A stretch of DNA of 64,000 nt from an uncultured SAR86 cluster bacterium. Lineage in GTDB: Bacteria; Pseudomonadota; Gammaproteobacteria; Magnimaribacterales; Magnimaribacteraceae. A program made the translations under genes and the position numbers. This document shows, piece by piece, positions 4,218-23,860 of the stretch. The stretch's first letter is position 1, and every line of letters begins with the position of its first letter. Location of the stretch: NCBI GenBank assembly GCA_902532675.1, contig CACAIY010000002.1, positions 38,774 through 102,773 of the forward strand, in the 5' to 3' direction. Under the pieces are notes generated by a model. The model worked only from the letters and a program-made list of their open reading frames with translations, ran no database searches and had not been told where the DNA came from.

Positions 4218-4309
4218 GGATAGTTGGCAGAGTCTGGTTGAATGCACCGGTCTTGAAAACCGGCAAGGGGTCAAACCCTTCGGGGGTTCGAATCCCTCAC
4301 TATCCGCCA
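4218..4309 (+). tRNA. tRNA-Ser (anticodon UGA), class II with long variable arm, CCA encoded
   Basis: Acceptor stem GGATAGT/ACTATCC. D stem GCA/TGC. Anticodon stem CCGGT/ACCGG with loop CTTGAAA (UGA). Variable arm AAGGG..CCCTT. T arm GGGGG-TTCGAAT-CCCTC. 3' GCCA. Confidence 0.93.
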
Positions 4310-7417: not shown

Positions 7418-7999
7418 ATGAAATCCATTTGTGTTTATGCTGGTTCAGCTTCAGGAAATAAACCTGAGTTCACAGAAAAAGCTATTGAGCTCGGGTATGC
7501 GATAGCTGATAAGAATTTTTCTATGGTTTATGGCGGGGGGAGTAACGGCCTTATGGGAGTTACAGCTGACGCTGCTTTATCTAGAGGTGCAAACGTAACA
7601 GGTATTATCACTGAGCAGTTAGATGCAATAGAAGTGGGTCACAAAGGCTTAACTAAACTTGAGATAGTTTCTTCAATGCACGAAAGGAAATCGAGAATGG
7701 CTAAATTATCTGATGCCATTATTTCTTTACCTGGAGGAGTCGGTACTTGGGAAGAATTATTTGAAGCTCTAGCTTGGAATCAATTGGGTTTTTATTCAAA
7801 ACCCATAATACTATTTAATGTAGATGACTATTACTCTTCTCTTTACGATTTTTCTAAAGAAGCGGTTAAAAAAGGTTTTTTACCAAGGACAACATTTGAA
7901 GAATTTTTTATTTCTGATGATTTAGAAATAATTTTTGATTTTATATCGAAGTTTAAAAAGAAGGATGGCAAAGATTGGTACAAAAGATTAGAAAGATAG
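7418..7999 (+). CDS. LOG family protein (TIGR00730; cytokinin riboside 5'-monophosphate phosphoribohydrolase-like)
   Basis: 193 aa. Signature motifs VYGGGSNGLMG and PGGVGTWEELFE. Confidence 0.85.
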   Translation: MKSICVYAGSASGNKPEFTEKAIELGYAIADKNFSMVYGGGSNGLMGVTADAALSRGANVTGIITEQLDAIEVGHKGLTKLEIVSSMHERKSRMAKLSDAIISLPGGVGTWEELFEALAWNQLGFYSKPIILFNVDDYYSSLYDFSKEAVKKGFLPRTTFEEFFISDDLEIIFDFISKFKKKDGKDWYKRLER

Positions 8000-8023: not shown

Positions 8024-8051
8024 TTGCATAATAAAATTTTTTTGATAAATT
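8024..8051 (+). promoter_or_regulatory. sigma70-like promoter: TTGCAT - 16 nt - extended -10 TGaTAAATT
   Basis: -35 at 8024-8029, TG at 8043-8044, -10 at 8046-8051. T-tracts lie upstream (8006-8010, 8017-8022). The site is 25 nt after the LOG stop, with no downstream gene on this strand. Confidence 0.35.
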
Positions 8052-8057
8052 GAACTT

Positions 8058-8221
8058 AGGACATATTTTGGAAAGAATCGGACCTCGAGACCCGAATCAG
8101 GAAAAAAATGGACAGAAGAAGAAGGGTGAAAGGATTAAACGAAAGTTAATCATCTGTGAGTTAGAAAGGGTACTAACCACACAGTGAGAAACCCGCACTG
8201 ACCCCTTCAACTTCGATTTTT
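8058..8221 (+). ncRNA. candidate purine/GGA-rich small RNA (element A), paralogous to 21895-22110(-)
   Basis: Six GGA triplets within 8059-8134. AGAAGAAGAAGG tract. Hairpins GATTAA-7-TTAATC (8133-8151) and CTGTGAGTTAG-8-CTAACCACACAG (8154-8184). No convincing local terminator. Ends and strand are inferred only. Confidence 0.3.
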
Positions 8222-8801
8222 AGAATTCAAAGCTCTCCAAAAGAGTATACTCAGTTTTTCCTTTATCAAATTCGCTCTCAAATACATTTAGTTGTTTCAC
8301 TTTTCCTTTCAAGGTTTTTTCAAATATTCCAAATTCATAGTGTGGTCGGTCTTTTTCTTTAAAGCGTCCCAACGTAATATGAGGTCTATAATCCTTTAGT
8401 TCAGAACCAAAGCCAATATTAACTACAATTCTTTCTACTTTCTCGTGAAGAGTTTTTAAATGTGAGCTAGGTTTCACTAAAGCGGATAGAACTTGGCTTT
8501 TTTCATTAGGAAAAAAAGAAATTTCAGTTAAATCAATAGAATTTGAAAGGCTTGCAAAGTTTATTTCTTTTAGGTTTTCATTCATTTGATTTATTTGTTC
8601 AGGTTCCATCTCGCCGACGAAACATACCGTAAGATGGTGTTGATCATTTTTTTGCCAAGAAATATTGGCATCTTTCAATAAATTAGACTTAAGCTCTTTC
8701 TTAATTTCTATAATTTGATTATTGAAATCCTTCTCAAGGGTTAACGCTATGAAAATTCTTGCCATATAAATACTGCTAAAATAATAATCCATATAAGCCA
8801 C
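8220..8801 (-). CDS. thpR: RNA 2',3'-cyclic phosphodiesterase (2H phosphoesterase, ThpR/LigT). The likely start is the internal Met at 8765 (MARIFIAL).
   Basis: Two HxT/S motifs (HHLTVCF and PHITLGRF) with the spacing typical of LigT. The first 12 codons of the track ORF look like an artefactual extension. Confidence 0.8.
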   Translation of the reverse strand: MAYMDYYFSSIYMARIFIALTLEKDFNNQIIEIKKELKSNLLKDANISWQKNDQHHLTVCFVGEMEPEQINQMNENLKEINFASLSNSIDLTEISFFPNEKSQVLSALVKPSSHLKTLHEKVERIVVNIGFGSELKDYRPHITLGRFKEKDRPHYEFGIFEKTLKGKVKQLNVFESEFDKGKTEYTLLESFEF

Positions 8802-16017: not shown

Positions 16018-18834
16018 ATGGCCAGTAAAAATACAAACCTATCAGGTGTTCGCCTTTACGGTAGATTGCTTTCATATGTACTGCCTTATATACCTTTATT
16101 TATTGTAAGCATTATAGGTTTTGCTATTTACTCAGGTTCGCAAGTTGCTGCAACTGAATGGCTTAAAAGAGTTATTGATTACGTTAATGACCCTGTTGGC
16201 GACATGAGAGTTATTCTACCTATAGCTTTAATTGCTATAGCTTTAGTAAGGGGAATAGGTTTTTTTGTAGGAAATTATCTACTTTCTTCTATATCAAATA
16301 GACTTGTTCATAACATTAGGACTGAACTATTTAATAAACTTACTGTTCTTCCAAGTTCTTATTACGACCAACACAGCTCTGGCCATTTAATCTCAAGAAT
16401 AACTTTTAACGTTATGCAGGTAACTGGGGCTGCTACAAATGCGCTAAAAATATTTATACGCGAAGGTCTGCTAGTAATAGGTTTAATTACTTATTTAATG
16501 TTTCTTAATTGGAAATTGGCAATGTTTCTTTTTATAGCTGCTCCTTTCATTGCAATTATTGTTGGAGTGGCTGCACGAAGACTTAGAAAGATTAGTGGAA
16601 GAATTCAAACAGCCATGGGAGATGTTACGCATGTAGCTTCAGAAACTATAACTGGACACGAAGAAGTTAAGTCTTTTGGAGGAGAAGAATATGAAATCAG
16701 TAGATTTAATGATGCAAGTGACAACAATAGAAAGCAGAATTTAAAACTAGAAGCTACTAATTCAATTGCCTCACCTTTAGTGCAACTTTTCGTGTCTGCA
16801 GCTTTAGCGCTAATAACCTGGTTAGCGCTTGATGCTTCTATAGTCTCTAATATGACTCCAGGGACTTTTATTGCCTTTTTTAGCGCAGCAGGGATGTTGG
16901 CAAAACCAGTAAGGCAATTATCGGAAATAAACAGTCAAATACAAAAAGGATTGGCGGCAGCTGAAGATATATTTAGTCAGTTGGATGAAACACCTGAAAG
17001 AAATGAAGGAACATATACTTCGGATGACATTAAAGGAGAGATAGTTTTTTCAAATCTTAATTTCTCATATGAAGGAGAAGGAGGGGGGAATACGCTCGAA
17101 GATATTAATTTAATAATTAATCAAGGTGAAACCGTAGCTTTCGTAGGAAAATCCGGAGCTGGTAAAACAACATTAATGAGCTTGCTACCAAGATTTTACG
17201 ATGGATACGAAGGAGACATAAAGGTAGACGGCATATCTATAAGCGAATATGAAATAACTAATTTAAGATCGCACATAGCCTTGGTAAGTCAAAACGTGAC
17301 ATTATTTAATGACACTATTGCCAACAATATAAATTATGGATCTTCTAATGTAGATTTGGATCAAATAAAAGATGCAGCAAAAAAAGCTAATGCTGACTCT
17401 TTCATAGAATTAATGGCTGATGGGTACGATACGCAAGCAGGTGATGATGGTGTTTTACTGTCAGGAGGTCAGCGTCAGAGGATAGCTATAGCAAGAGCCA
17501 TATTGAAAGATGCGTCTATCCTTATACTTGACGAGGCTACTTCGGCTTTAGATTCAGAATCAGAAAATTATATTCAAGATGCGCTAGTTGAATTATCTAA
17601 AAATAAGACCACTTTAGTTATAGCTCACCGTCTTTCAACAATTGAATCTGCAGATAAGATTGTTGTGTTGGATCATGGGAAGATTGTGGAAATAGGTGAC
17701 CACGCATCACTTATACAAAAGGACAGCCATTATGCCGAGTTACATAGAAATCAATTTAAAGACGACCCTCAGGTACCAACCAAAGCAGATGAAGTCAGAG
17801 ACTTAATTATTTCTGAAGAGTCTGAAATAGACCAAGTTAGTTTTATTGAAGAAAGTTGGTATAAGAAAAGACTTTGGTTGTGGGCCCTATGGCCAATCTC
17901 TAGATTGATTAAATCCTTAGTTACAAGAAGAAGAAATAAATTTTTACTTAATTCAGAACTTTCGTGGAAGCCTGACATTCCTGTAATAATTGTTGGAAAT
18001 ATTATCGTAGGAGGTTCTGGAAAAACACCTTTTGTTATTTGGCTTTCTAAAGTTCTTGAAGAGCAAGGATATAGTCCTGGAATAGTAAGTAGAGGTTATG
18101 GTAGTAAATCAAATCAATATCCTTTAATTATTAACGATGATTCTAGAGTAGAGGATTCAGGCGATGAGCCACTTATAATTCATAGAAATACAAACAGGCC
18201 AGTTTGTATTTCTCCTAACAGAACTCAGGCCGTTAAGAAGTTATTGGAAGAAACTGATGCAGATATAATTATAAGTGATGATGGATTACAACATTACAAG
18301 CTAGGTAGGGATATAGAAATAATAGTATTTGATGGCCTAAGAGGAATAGGGAATAGTCTCTGCTTACCAGCCGGTCCATTAAGGGAACCAATAGAACGCT
18401 CTAAAGACGCTGATTTTATTGTTAGCTCAACAAAAAGATTAAATGTTGAAGAGATTCACGAAGATTGTTTAATGACTTACAAGCCTTTGGAATGGGTAAG
18501 GTTAAGTGACAACAGAAGGTTTCCAGCAAAGGACTGGCCATTATCAAGAAATGTGCATGCTGTTGCAGGTATAGGAAATCCTTCAAAGTTTTACAATACT
18601 TTGACTGCTTTAGGCCTTAACCTTGTAGAGCACAGTTTCCCAGATCACTATCAATTTAAAGAAGAAGATTTAAATTTTGAAGATAATCATCCAATATTAA
18701 TGACAGAAAAGGACGCTGTAAGATGTATGGATATGAAGAATAAAAATCTTTGGTATTTATCAATTGAAGCAGAAATTAAGGATGATATTTTTAAAACAGA
18801 ATTACTTGCCAAACTTAAAGAAATTGGAGATTAG
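16018..18834 (+). CDS. msbA/lpxK: fusion protein: lipid A/LPS flippase MsbA (aa 1-580) + tetraacyldisaccharide 4'-kinase LpxK (aa ~610-938)
   Basis: The N-terminal half has a 6-TM ABC exporter domain plus an NBD (GKSGAGKTT, LSGGQRQR, ILILDEATSALD), ending ...YAELHRNQF like E. coli MsbA. A 29-aa linker occupies 17758-17844. Then come the LpxK N-terminal helix and P-loop (VIIVGNIIVGGSGKTP ... SRGYG), all in one uninterrupted frame. Confidence 0.9.
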   Translation: MASKNTNLSGVRLYGRLLSYVLPYIPLFIVSIIGFAIYSGSQVAATEWLKRVIDYVNDPVGDMRVILPIALIAIALVRGIGFFVGNYLLSSISNRLVHNIRTELFNKLTVLPSSYYDQHSSGHLISRITFNVMQVTGAATNALKIFIREGLLVIGLITYLMFLNWKLAMFLFIAAPFIAIIVGVAARRLRKISGRIQTAMGDVTHVASETITGHEEVKSFGGEEYEISRFNDASDNNRKQNLKLEATNSIASPLVQLFVSAALALITWLALDASIVSNMTPGTFIAFFSAAGMLAKPVRQLSEINSQIQKGLAAAEDIFSQLDETPERNEGTYTSDDIKGEIVFSNLNFSYEGEGGGNTLEDINLIINQGETVAFVGKSGAGKTTLMSLLPRFYDGYEGDIKVDGISISEYEITNLRSHIALVSQNVTLFNDTIANNINYGSSNVDLDQIKDAAKKANADSFIELMADGYDTQAGDDGVLLSGGQRQRIAIARAILKDASILILDEATSALDSESENYIQDALVELSKNKTTLVIAHRLSTIESADKIVVLDHGKIVEIGDHASLIQKDSHYAELHRNQFKDDPQVPTKADEVRDLIISEESEIDQVSFIEESWYKKRLWLWALWPISRLIKSLVTRRRNKFLLNSELSWKPDIPVIIVGNIIVGGSGKTPFVIWLSKVLEEQGYSPGIVSRGYGSKSNQYPLIINDDSRVEDSGDEPLIIHRNTNRPVCISPNRTQAVKKLLEETDADIIISDDGLQHYKLGRDIEIIVFDGLRGIGNSLCLPAGPLREPIERSKDADFIVSSTKRLNVEEIHEDCLMTYKPLEWVRLSDNRRFPAKDWPLSRNVHAVAGIGNPSKFYNTLTALGLNLVEHSFPDHYQFKEEDLNFEDNHPILMTEKDAVRCMDMKNKNLWYLSIEAEIKDDIFKTELLAKLKEIGD

Positions 18835-21344: not shown

Positions 21345-21890
21345 ATGAATAAACCATCAATCTCATCAATATTTTCAGAACTGTCAAAGCTAGACGAAGA
21401 TACATTTCCACCCGTTGAGAAGTGGGACCCACCATTATGCGAGAACGTAGAAATGCGAATTGATAGATCTGGGAGATGGTTTTTTATGAATTCTCCAATT
21501 GGAAGAGAGAGAATGGTTAATTTATTTAGTAGAGTGCTGCGATTAGATTCTGATGGTTTTTATTATCTAGTTACTCCTGTAGAAAAAATTAGGATTATTG
21601 TAGAAGATAAACCATTCGTAATTATTGATTTTGAGATTCTAGGTTCCGGTGAACAACAAATAATAAATTTTAAAACAAATACCCATGAGACCTTTTCATT
21701 AAATTTAGATCATCCACTAAGAGTTGAAGTAAACAAGGAAACTTTAGAGCCTTCACCTTACGTATTAGTAAGAAAAAACTTAGAAGCTTTAATATCTAGA
21801 AACGTTTATTACAAATTAATTGATTTAGGAGAAGAGAAGGGAGAAGATTTTGGGCTTGTAAGCCAAGAATCTTTCTTTAAATTATATTAG
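21345..21890 (+). CDS. DUF1285 domain-containing protein
   Basis: 181 aa. Pattern W.PP.C...EMRIDRSGRWF...SPI.RERMVNLFSRVL..D.DG.YYLVTPVE matches my recollection of DUF1285. Starts immediately after the LysE stop. Confidence 0.55.
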   Translation: MNKPSISSIFSELSKLDEDTFPPVEKWDPPLCENVEMRIDRSGRWFFMNSPIGRERMVNLFSRVLRLDSDGFYYLVTPVEKIRIIVEDKPFVIIDFEILGSGEQQIINFKTNTHETFSLNLDHPLRVEVNKETLEPSPYVLVRKNLEALISRNVYYKLIDLGEEKGEDFGLVSQESFFKLY

Positions 21891-21894
21891 GGAC

Positions 21895-22110
21895 ATAAAA
21901 AAACAGAGCCTTAGCTCTGTTTAGTTCGAGTTCGAAAGTGTCTAGATTTGAGTTTTTTTCTCTAGCTCCTTGATCAATTTCTCTTTTGATCTTGGTGGTC
22001 TAATAAATCTTTTGGTACCTTTCTTTATTAGAGCTTTCACCTTCCGTTCTCTAACTTTCTTATCTCTTCCTTCTCCCGTCTCGAGTTGTTTCCAGATCGG
22101 ATAATTAAGT
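21895..22110 (-). ncRNA. candidate purine-rich small RNA or small basic-protein transcript (element B), paralogous to 8058-8221(+)
   Basis: Bounded by the promoter at 22117-22144 and the terminator at 21897-21922. Five GGA triplets. Hairpins CTAATAAA-16-TTTATTAG and GATCAA-8-TTGATC. No ATG anywhere in the transcript. Ends are inferred. Confidence 0.35.
21897..21922. terminator. intrinsic terminator hairpin, strongest on the minus strand (usable on both strands)
   Basis: AAACAGAGC-cTTA-GCTCTGTTT. On the minus strand the stem is followed by a 7-T run. On the plus strand it lies 10 nt after the DUF1285 stop, but only a short T run follows. Confidence 0.7.
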
Positions 22111-22116
22111 AAGGTA

Positions 22117-22176
22117 ATAATACTCTTTTTTAATAATCGGTCAACACTTTTTTTAACTTTTTTTTAACTTTTTTTT
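22117..22176 (-). promoter_or_regulatory. strong sigma70-like promoter with a phased A-tract (UP-element-like) array
   Basis: Minus strand: A8-GTT-A8-GTT-A7 (22148-22176, tract starts 10-11 bp apart), then TTGACC (22139-22144), a 16-nt spacer and TATTAT (22117-22122). Confidence 0.45.
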
Positions 22177-22210: not shown

Positions 22211-23860
22211 TTACATATTTGGGTAGTTAGGTCCTCCAGCTCCCTCAGGGGTTACCCAATTAATATTTTGAGAGGGATCTTTTATGTCACAAGTCTTACA
22301 GTGAACACAATTTTGTGCATTGATTTGGAAGATTTTATCACCATCTTTTTCAACTATTTCATATACTCCAGCAGGACAGTATCTTTGAGCAGGCTCATCA
22401 TATTTAGGTAAATTAATATCTATTGGTATAGAAGCATCTTTTAAAACTAGATGACAAGGTTGATCTTCTTCATGGTTAGTATTCGATAAAAAGACTGAAG
22501 AGAGTTTATCAAAACTAATTACTCCATCAGGTTTAGGGTAATCTATTTTTGGCAGTTCATTGGCTTCTTTTAAACAATCATGATCTGGTTGATCGTGATG
22601 AAGTGTAAAAGGTAATTTACCTCTAAATATGAGTTGATCCATGCCGGCCAAAGCTACTCCTAACAAAGTTCCGAACTTATGAATAAATGGTAAAAAATTT
22701 CTAGCCTTATGAAGTTCCTTTTCTAGCCAAGAAGATTGTAAGTTTGATTGAAAGTTTGCAATATCTTTATTTGACTCTTCTTTAATTATTTCTTCGTAAA
22801 TACTTTCTGCTCCTATCATTCCTGATTTCATTGCAGTATGAGTTCCTTTAATTCTAGGAAAATTCATAGTTCCAGCATCATCTCCTACAAGCAACCCTCC
22901 GGGGAAATGCATCTTAGGAATTGATTGGTAACCACCTTTGATTAGAGCTCTGGCACCGTAAGCAGTTCTTGTTCCTCCTTCTAAATATTTTTTTATCGAA
23001 GCTTGATGTTTCCATTGTTGAAATTCATCAAAAGGGCTAATGTGCGGGTTGTCGTAATCTAAAGGTACTATATAACCCAAGAATGCTTGATTATTTTCAC
23101 CATGGTAGAAATACGAACCGGATAGAACTCCTTTTGCTGCAGGCCATCCCATTGTGTGTATTACAAGACCTTCCTCGTGTAATTCAGGGTTTATATCCCA
23201 AACTTCTTTAAAGCCTATGCCATAGTGTTGAGGATCGCTATCTTTATCGAGATTAAATTGTTTTATTACTTGTTTTCCTAAATGTCCTCTACAACCTTCC
23301 GATAAGACTGTATATTTTGCTAAAAGGTCTATACCTGGTTCAAAGCTAGGTTTCTTTTCACCAGAAGCATCAAGCCCCATGTCTCCTGTCGAGACTCCAA
23401 TTACAGTTTCATTATCGTAAATAAGTTTAGATGCTGTAAAACCAGGGAAAATATCTATTTCTAATCCTTCAGCGTATTCACCTAACCATCTACAAAAATT
23501 ACCTAGACTCATGATGTAATTACCATGATTTTTAAATGTTGTTGCAAATAATGTAGGTATTGAAAATGCACTAGAATCATTAAGCAAATAACGTACTGAA
23601 TCTTTTTTTACAGGAGTGTTGAGTGGAGCTTCTAATTCTTTCCAATCAGGTATTAGTTCATTAAGAGCTTTTGGATCAAAAACATTACCTGAAAGGATGT
23701 GAGCTCCAATTTCAGAACCTTTTTCAACCACGCAAATAGAAATTTCTTTAGAATTTTTATCACATAACTGTTTTAACTTTATTGCGGTAGATAGTCCTGC
23801 CGGACCAGCGCCAACAATAACTACGTCATACTCCATTGATTCTCTTTCGGTGTTTTCCAT
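22211..23860 (-). CDS. electron-transfer flavoprotein:ubiquinone oxidoreductase (ETF-QO)
   Basis: 549 aa. FAD motif VVIVGAGPAGLS. C-terminal 4Fe-4S ferredoxin-like region (CPAGVYE ... NCVHCKTCDIKDP). Divergent from etfBA. Confidence 0.95.
   Translation of the reverse strand: MENTERESMEYDVVIVGAGPAGLSTAIKLKQLCDKNSKEISICVVEKGSEIGAHILSGNVFDPKALNELIPDWKELEAPLNTPVKKDSVRYLLNDSSAFSIPTLFATTFKNHGNYIMSLGNFCRWLGEYAEGLEIDIFPGFTASKLIYDNETVIGVSTGDMGLDASGEKKPSFEPGIDLLAKYTVLSEGCRGHLGKQVIKQFNLDKDSDPQHYGIGFKEVWDINPELHEEGLVIHTMGWPAAKGVLSGSYFYHGENNQAFLGYIVPLDYDNPHISPFDEFQQWKHQASIKKYLEGGTRTAYGARALIKGGYQSIPKMHFPGGLLVGDDAGTMNFPRIKGTHTAMKSGMIGAESIYEEIIKEESNKDIANFQSNLQSSWLEKELHKARNFLPFIHKFGTLLGVALAGMDQLIFRGKLPFTLHHDQPDHDCLKEANELPKIDYPKPDGVISFDKLSSVFLSNTNHEEDQPCHLVLKDASIPIDINLPKYDEPAQRYCPAGVYEIVEKDGDKIFQINAQNCVHCKTCDIKDPSQNINWVTPEGAGGPNYPNM

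Follow-up and report, generated by a model that had tools for sequence, protein, structure and literature searches.

The DNA analysed here, called the window, comprises 64,000 nucleotides (nt) of a SAR86 cluster bacterium (assembly GCA_902532675.1, contig CACAIY010000002.1, positions 38,774-102,773) and carries two intergenic elements, A and B. The entire window was searched against Rfam with cmscan at the curated gathering thresholds, which returned three matches: IMES-5, IMES-1 and one tRNA-Ser. Element A is a full-length IMES-5 RNA (RF02995; 8064-8215, + strand), with 135.2 bits against a gathering score of 96.1 over model positions 1-150. Every helix of the model is present, and no sequence difference sets A apart from the family. 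Element B is a full-length IMES-1 RNA (RF02034; 21916-22106, - strand), with 131.5 bits against a gathering score of 81 over model positions 1-191; R1, a covariance model of our own whose input was 43 IMES-1 sequences only, scores it at 151 bits. The identity of A is also borne out by its homologues and by its single-sequence fold, which agrees with the IMES-5 consensus structure. As both matches cover the full Rfam model above threshold, A and B are members of two described marine RNA families and are already known.

An earlier note on this DNA had proposed A and B as two paralogous small RNAs whose promoters stand equidistant from a shared core and which would be conserved in relatives. This proposal is supported, and because the elements are already catalogued, the finding as written is a rediscovery. 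What goes beyond the catalogue is an apparent superfamily link between the families and a signature of palindromic loops. In our joint reading, to which we assign a probability of roughly 0.72, A (IMES-5) and B (IMES-1) are stand-alone genes for structured non-coding RNAs (ncRNAs), the two are distant paralogues, and their palindromes pair between molecules.

IMES RNAs were known from environmental sequence alone when first described. IMES-1 is said to have been reported by Weinberg and colleagues in 2009 as exceptionally abundant in marine metatranscriptomes. The IMES-5 motif was reportedly described by Weinberg and colleagues in 2017, in a paper whose main text makes no mention of IMES-5. 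Neither RNA is mentioned in the literature searched, the 2009 paper and the 2017 supplement lying outside that search, and we know of no function assigned to IMES RNAs since the 2009 description. Both RNAs are now placed in SAR86, a named, abundant and culturable lineage.

Architecture, host and distribution of the two RNA genes

Upstream of element A lies a promoter-like site (8024-8051, + strand): a -35 hexamer TTGCAT (8024-8029), a 16-nt spacer and a -10 hexamer TAAATT (8046-8051). Its hexamers and spacing are kept upstream of IMES-5 at related SAR86 loci, and we infer that it acts as a promoter. A simple consensus promoter scan did not list this site because its -35 hexamer is weak. Within the RNA, all on the + strand, the 5' hairpin P2 (8077-8097) pairs AUCGG with CCGAAU around a 10-nt loop, ACCUCGAGAC, which holds the palindrome CUCGAG (8084-8089). 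This hexamer is invariant across all IMES-5 copies, and the folding ensemble leaves it unpaired with P = 0.67. The closing helix P1 is formed by GAAG-AA-GAAGGG (8115-8126) and CCCUUC-AA-CUUC (8203-8214), and its 5' half runs into a junction, GGUGAAAG (8125-8132), that is common to IMES-1 as shared conserved columns of a joint alignment. There follow: P3 (8136-8149), a short hairpin UAAAC-GAAA-GUUAA with a GNRA-type tetraloop and no palindrome; P4 (8155-8181), whose loop AAGGGUA (8166-8172) contains GGGU (8168-8171) pairing with ACCC (8191-8194); and P5 (8182-8200), in which CAGUG and CACUG enclose the loop AGAAACCCG. Among 23 homologues at the syntenic site, the stems of P2, P3, P4 and P5 vary with pairing retained, and P1 is invariant.

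Element A sits between a LOG/lysine-decarboxylase-like gene (7418-7999, + strand) and a LigT-type phosphoesterase gene (8220-8801, - strand); ligT is convergent with the RNA, and only 4 nt separate the 3' end of the RNA from the ligT stop codon (8215-8222). A terminator, AACACC...GGUGUUUUUUU, stands 3' of IMES-5 in other SAR86 clades and is missing in the window; in the clade of the window, only the RNA's own closing helix and a U run remain 3' of A. In distant SAR86 clades, trpS follows IMES-5 directly on the same strand. As these clades keep IMES-5 without ligT at the site, a functional link between IMES-5 and the LigT phosphoesterase was rejected. The conserved promoter-like site and the convergent neighbours of A fit a stand-alone small RNA gene.

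Element B has a predicted promoter (22117-22144, - strand) composed of TTGACC, a 16-nt spacer and TATTAT, with an A/T-rich upstream tract and 10/12 matches in the promoter scan; it is kept in other IMES-1 genes as TTGACA-17-TATATT. On the - strand, the 5' hairpin P2 (22060-22104) has an outer stem of UUAUC (22104-22100) and GAUAA (22064-22060) and a loop, AACAACUCGAGACG, with the palindrome CUCGAG at 22080-22085. The 5' half of P1, GAG-AA-CGGAAG (22041-22051), pairs with CUUUCG-AA-CUC (21928-21938). P3 (21999-22033) joins CUCUAAUAAA to UUUAUUAGA in a covarying stem, and its 16-nt loop holds a second palindrome, GGUACC (22014-22019). In P4 (21972-21991), GAUCA and UGAUC enclose the loop AAAGAGAAAU, from which GAG (21981-21983) pairs with CUC (21950-21952) in the A-rich, ACUC-containing loop of P5 (CUAGAG/AUCUAG; 21942-21965). 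A terminator scan placed an intrinsic terminator at 21897-21922, ACAGAGC-UAAG-GCUCUGU followed by a U run. Such a terminator, with a 9-bp stem and a U run in B, is kept 3' of every IMES-1 gene examined, and promoter and terminator are both kept in all genes examined, tandem copies included. Across the family, RNAalifold gives 27 pairs, 23 of which have changed on both sides, and most of the 43 representatives can form the pairs of the mapped Rfam structure. Compared with the majority of IMES-1, B is a subtype: its P2 loop has CUCGAG and not CUGCAG, its P3 loop has GGUACC and not GUCGAC, and its 5' hairpin is weaker. B lies between a DUF1285 gene (21345-21890, + strand) and an ETF-ubiquinone oxidoreductase (ETF-QO) gene (22211-23860, - strand).

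The linker between P4 and P5 of B, CAAGGAGC (21965-21972, - strand), which includes a perfect Shine-Dalgarno-like AAGGAG, is nearly invariant in IMES-1 and has no counterpart in IMES-5.

Relatives were sampled as the DNA 10 kb either side of the gene for an MsbA-LpxK fusion protein, which is encoded between A and B. This protein shares 92-94% identity with those of SAR86-cluster single-cell genomes and about 75% with its counterpart from isolate HIMB1674, whose genome is complete. The syntenic site is occupied by IMES-5 at 24 loci, by IMES-1 at 21 and by both at 15, so that the conservation in related genomes on which the earlier proposal depended is found; the IMES-5 loci include distant SAR86 clades. 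The complete genome of HIMB1674 carries both RNAs at the same sites (L012), and genetics and RNA work are therefore possible in this isolate. IMES-1 genes of the CUCGAG type are linked to the DUF1285/ETF-QO site of a single SAR86 clade.

The fusion of msbA and lpxK is a single open reading frame (ORF) of 938 amino acids (16018-18834, + strand), with ABC transporter domains and a tetraacyldisaccharide 4'-kinase. Across SAR86 there are full-length matches to both halves, spanning about 3-3.5 kb of DNA. In loci of Porticoccus, Enterovibrio, Grimontia, Psychrobacter and Aggregatibacter the two genes adjoin; adjacency, not fusion, is established there.

The majority, CUGCAG-type IMES-1 occurs on AT-rich contigs at other sites, amid assorted housekeeping genes and sometimes in tandem, and no IMES-5 was found on the contigs carrying it. 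The pyruvate kinase beside one such copy (L173:2766-4178, P0001) is, after rounding, about 100% identical to a protein of 'Gammaproteobacteria bacterium TMED226'. As one site matches, the host of this type may be the uncultured gammaproteobacterial metagenome-assembled genome TMED226, an assignment at class level only. A conserved protein partner adjoining IMES-1 was rejected, the neighbours being assorted housekeeping genes in changing combinations.

Tandem CUGCAG-type copies were observed at L134:4293-4801, L089:1387-1883 and L181:5175-5670, with a period of about 300-320 nt. In the two tandem spacers read (L134 and L181), every copy comes with a TTGACA promoter and a terminator of its own. 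A further contig (L109:2918-4292) holds two IMES-1 copies about 1.2 kb apart. The genes flanking tandem copies (IDO, oadB, pyk, eda, edd, patatin, GH2 and M20) come in shifting combinations, as if the tandem copies marked rearrangement points.

Several contigs join IMES-1 to unrelated sequence. One from IMG/VR (L083:1-161) is a picorna/dicistro-like RNA virus genome, with RNA-dependent RNA polymerase, helicase and capsid, that has a truncated IMES-1 at one end; another (L082:1-142) is a phage portal contig with an IMES-1 fragment at its end; and further contigs, with L116, L118, L120 and L165 listed, join IMES-1 to unrelated GC-rich sequence. A phage origin of the IMG/VR matches was rejected, since the IMES-1 of both the RNA virus and the phage portal contig is truncated and terminal. 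We consider these fusions most likely to be artefacts of chimeric assembly from RNA libraries, a hint that IMES-1 is abundant as a transcript. A scan of viral contigs for IMES-5 was negative.

Within the window, a covariance search with filters off found no third copy. The tRNA-Ser (anticodon UGA; 4218-4309, + strand) is the sole further RNA gene detected there.

Palindromic loops and proposed intermolecular pairing

The P2 loop was followed through metagenomes with the pattern CUNNAG, in which the two central bases of the hexamer are free and the outer four are fixed. The central dinucleotide of the 125 matches was GC in 98, CG in 20, UA in 5, CA in 1 and AC in 1. The CA and AC matches and one CG case (L176) were discarded as GC-rich, coding-like chance matches that are not IMES RNAs. 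Every true IMES-1 has one of three P2 hexamers, CUGCAG, CUCGAG and CUUAAG, each of them palindromic. Second IMES-1 copies on the same contigs, which the pattern does not constrain, keep CUGCAG with differing flanks.

The P3 loop of IMES-1 behaves similarly, with a larger repertoire. A Watson-Crick palindromic hexamer is present in 47 of 74 unique segments (5.5 +/- 2.2 when shuffled). With G-U pairs allowed, the count is 65 of 74 (9.0 +/- 2.7 when shuffled), and eight of the other nine segments have GUUGAC, which is self-complementary via its central U-G; overall, 73 of the 74 are self-complementary. The Watson-Crick palindromes are GUCGAC, GCUAGC, GGUACC (the form in B), GUUAAC and GUAUAC. A further three hexamers, GUCGAU, GUCGGC and GUUGAC, are self-complementary through G-U and are not palindromic as DNA, giving at least eight self-complementary hexamers at this position. 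In IMES-5, P3 is short and often has a GAAA tetraloop, and the P2 palindrome is always CUCGAG in a 10-nt loop. As that hexamer is invariant, IMES-5 provides no test of palindrome switching. At all 15 loci with both genes, both RNAs carry CUCGAG, so heterodimers of the A/B type are possible.

A palindrome of six bases cannot pair with itself inside one loop, and the G-U variants are not palindromes in DNA; pairing between RNA molecules is therefore the simplest explanation. From covariation only, we infer that the palindromic loops form symmetric intermolecular kissing loops. IMES-1, with two independent self-complementary loops in P2 and P3, could then dimerise or build larger symmetric oligomers. 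IMES-5 has the P2 palindrome only, and because this is identical to the palindrome of the co-resident IMES-1, it could form homodimers or pair with IMES-1. A more specific proposal is that IMES-1 self-assembles through contacts of P2 and P3 into dimers or into closed or open homo-oligomers, and that IMES-5 dimerises, joins these assemblies or caps them. We hold this proposal tentatively, at somewhat under an even chance. If true, it would describe a natural, RNA-only quaternary assembly built from a unit of less than 200 nt in a free-living, streamlined bacterium.

Two points weigh against intermolecular pairing. Only the central pair of the P2 hexamer was freely tested in the metagenome set, and in three states, because the search pattern fixed the outer four bases; and the single-sequence fold of B does not predict an open P2 loop. 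One alternative would be that the palindromes act in DNA, as sites for dimeric proteins or sites related to restriction-modification, or that they are functionless, the RNAs being monomeric and serving as protein scaffolds or regulators. Palindromes are common as protein-binding sites, and P2 takes just three states. However, the three G-U hexamers of P3 are not palindromes at the DNA level, at least eight hexamers keep a self-complementarity that a single sequence-specific protein would not need, and both hexamers are located in the apical loops of covarying hairpins within the transcript. A DNA-level or monomeric explanation is thus, in our judgement, unlikely but deserving of serious consideration, and pairing between RNA molecules is preferred.

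Probable relatedness of IMES-1 and IMES-5

If A and B derive from one ancestral RNA, models of one family would be expected to recognise the other. Scored with the Rfam IMES-1 model, A gives a full-length alignment (30 bits, E 7.8e-5). In 1.1 Mb of SAR86 DNA, our R1 recovers at least 15 IMES-5 elements over their full length (E 5e-7 to 4e-3). The first unrelated R1 match (L015:14204-14346, E 0.029) falls inside a coding ORF and was set aside as background. When the window was searched with R1 and filters off, A scored 28.7 bits and the best background match 12.3 bits.

Both families were then aligned to R1. In this joint alignment, A3, pairing holds for 92% of cells, and 36 of the 40 pairs have changes on both sides that preserve it. 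The covariation score of A3 is 0.54; it drops to 0.13 or less once the partners are displaced by one to three columns, and none of 500 shuffles reaches it. All elements are collinear between the families, and 33 columns hold one and the same conserved base in IMES-1 and IMES-5. The common 5' hairpin has an internal loop and an apical loop (A/C)(A/C)CUCGAGAC(G/C). It is followed by a purine-rich linker; the closing helix P1, split by an AA/AA internal loop; the GGUGAAAG junction; P3; a CCACC-like junction; P4 and P5; and GAC before the closing strand. A and B may accordingly be read as one plan, with a CUCGAG-loop P2, purine-rich linker, split P1, GGUGAAAG junction, P3 to P5 and pairing of the P4 and P5 loops.

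Several of the changes between the families are compensatory. In the helix between the P4 and P5 loops, IMES-1 has GAGA/UCUC and IMES-5 has GGGU/ACCC, with two of the four pairs changed on both sides; variants of this helix also occur inside IMES-1 (GGG/CCC in L127, GAAG/CUUC in L178). The P1 pair at A3 columns 67/286 is G-C in IMES-1 and A-U in IMES-5. The loop motif AACUCGAGACG is identical in distant IMES-5 forms (L022 and L026) and in IMES-1, B included; A itself reads ACCUCGAGACC.

The earlier note had based the paralogy of A and B on four collinear blocks, all of which lie exactly where it placed them: TGGAAA (8069-8074 and 22089-22094), CTCGAGAC (8084-8091 and 22078-22085), GGTGAAAG (8125-8132 and 22034-22041) and AGAAAGG(G)TAC (8163-8173 and 22015-22024). 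Its distances hold as well: 60 and 59 nt from TTG to CTCGAGAC, 41 and 44 nt from CTCGAGAC to GGTGAAAG, and 16 nt for both promoter spacers. In the structure-aware alignment, CTCGAGAC and GGTGAAAG occupy equivalent positions in the two RNAs, and the other two blocks do not. TGGAAA falls in the internal loop of A but in the inner stem of B. AGAAAGG(G)TAC forms the P4 loop in A (AGAAAGGGTAC, whose GGGU pairs with ACCC of the P5 loop) and the P3 loop in B (AGAAAGGTAC, with the palindrome GGUACC). As these are different helices, the hairpin stems that had been compared as compensatory, GTTAG/CTAAC and CTAATAAA/TTTATTAG, are not the compensatory change of one helix; the true compensatory changes between A and B lie elsewhere. 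The view that the 8-mer and its spacing exceed chance is upheld. CTCGAGAC occurs only at A and B in the 64 kb, both strands counted, where 0.33 occurrences are expected, and 6 of 100 shuffles reach two. The combination CTCGAGAC-N30-40-GGTGAAAG, a pattern chosen post hoc, occurs twice as compared to 0 of 100 shuffles.

Other results speak against common ancestry. The pairwise alignment of A and B that the earlier note had called for, run locally and semi-globally against 1000 dinucleotide shuffles, is not significant: the local z is -0.3 to -0.4, no better than the shuffles, and the semi-global z is 1.0 to 1.8, with 57 to 153 of the 1000 shuffles reaching the score. With sequence-only profile hidden Markov models (nhmmer), neither family finds the other (E > 1), and single-sequence nhmmer gives no cross matches between the families. 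Detection also fails in the reverse direction: the Rfam IMES-5 model has no match to B at E <= 10, and R2, our own covariance model of IMES-5, gives B 15.6 bits for the 5' hairpin only, with a background match at 15.9 bits. A3, moreover, was fitted to the IMES-1 model and is biased toward the IMES-1 structure.

These data could reflect families that are not homologous, A and B being IMES-5 and IMES-1 and their short motifs and multi-hairpin layout having arisen by convergence or chance. Consistent with this, pairwise alignments and profile models are non-significant, IMES-5 models do not detect IMES-1, and Rfam assigns neither family to a clan. Against it, two independent IMES-1 models detect IMES-5 at full length (E 1e-4 to 5e-7) with a 16-bit gap over background, the order of elements is collinear throughout, the same loop-loop helix is retained via compensatory changes, and AACUCGAGACG is identical between distant IMES-5 forms and IMES-1. 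Non-homology is therefore improbable, and a common ancestry of IMES-1 and IMES-5, remote but real, has our considerable confidence. The two families appear to form one superfamily that is unrecorded as an Rfam clan.

Alternative roles and comparison with known systems

Three further explanations concern the function of A and B. In the first, they would be sponges of the CsrB/RsmY type that titrate a CsrA-like protein via repeated GGA motifs; the analogy with CsrB/CsrC and RsmY/RsmZ in the earlier note holds as far as two paralogous, presumably abundant small RNAs. Like CsrB/CsrC and RsmY/RsmZ, A and B are two related small RNA genes per genome with their own promoters and, for B, its own terminator, and some GGA triplets occur in stretches of purine-rich linker such as AUGGACA (A) and CAAGGAGC (B). 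Beyond this the analogy fails. The loops are CUCGAG, GAAA, AAGGGUA, GAAACCC, AAAGAGAAAU and A-rich sequence, not ANGGA, and lack a GGA array. GGA sites are few and none is common to both families. In contrast to the simple repeated Csr/Rsm hairpins, A and B have a compact, conserved multi-helix junction with a pseudoknot, and no Csr/Rsm family was matched even at E <= 10. A sponge function of this type is very unlikely.

In the second, A and B would be cis-acting leaders or riboswitches of neighbouring genes. Both elements are intergenic, and IMES-5 lies upstream of trpS on the same strand in distant SAR86 clades. In the window, however, each is convergent with the next gene: A would meet the 3' end of ligT, and B that of the DUF1285 gene. 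In addition, IMES-1 always ends in its own terminator, as does IMES-5 in the clades where trpS follows, and the neighbours of IMES-1 vary freely. This explanation is even harder to sustain than a sponge, and A and B would instead each be transcribed alone from a sigma-70-type promoter, as structured ncRNA and not as message or leader. The third, that B encodes a small protein and A is a decayed copy of B, can be set aside: short ORFs are present (45 amino acids from TTG in A, 32 from GTG in B), but those of homologues range from 27 to 64 amino acids, start at TTG or GTG and never ATG, and include no conserved ORF; variable columns show no three-base codon periodicity (45/56, 45/58 and 43/57 in IMES-1; 28/47, 33/48 and 29/46 in IMES-5); the abundant two-sided changes in 36 of 40 pairs preserve base pairing; and A is more conserved than B and hence not decayed. 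Overall, the observation in the earlier note is partly confirmed and its interpretation partly supported.

With respect to the IMES-5 record, the present analysis adds a SAR86 host, a putative promoter, the link to IMES-1 and a fixed genomic site between the LOG-like gene and ligT or trpS. The dimerisation initiation site of human immunodeficiency virus type 1 (HIV-1) has a 9-nt loop with a 6-nt palindrome. The 10-nt loop of IMES-5, AC-CUCGAG-AC, resembles this loop.

The closest parallel for the proposed self-association lies in RNA-only complexes. In OLE and GOLLD, loops that switch between palindromes were taken as evidence of intermolecular pairing, and cryo-electron microscopy saw symmetric kissing loops (PMC12286853). 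The switches cited are GGCC/GAUC/AGCU in loop L9.3 of OLE and GC/CG in L21a of GOLLD (Kretsch et al. 2025, PMC12286853). Unlike OLE, GOLLD and ROOL, the IMES RNAs are only 150-190 nt long, are unrelated to them in sequence and have no such Rfam match, and their multimers are predicted from sequence. As in the OLE, GOLLD and ROOL complexes, an apical-loop palindrome changes to other palindromes across homologues. This signature was recently shown to mark real RNA-only complexes (PMC12286853), and in the IMES RNAs the covarying palindromic loops likewise yield a concrete, cheap and testable hypothesis of RNA self-association.

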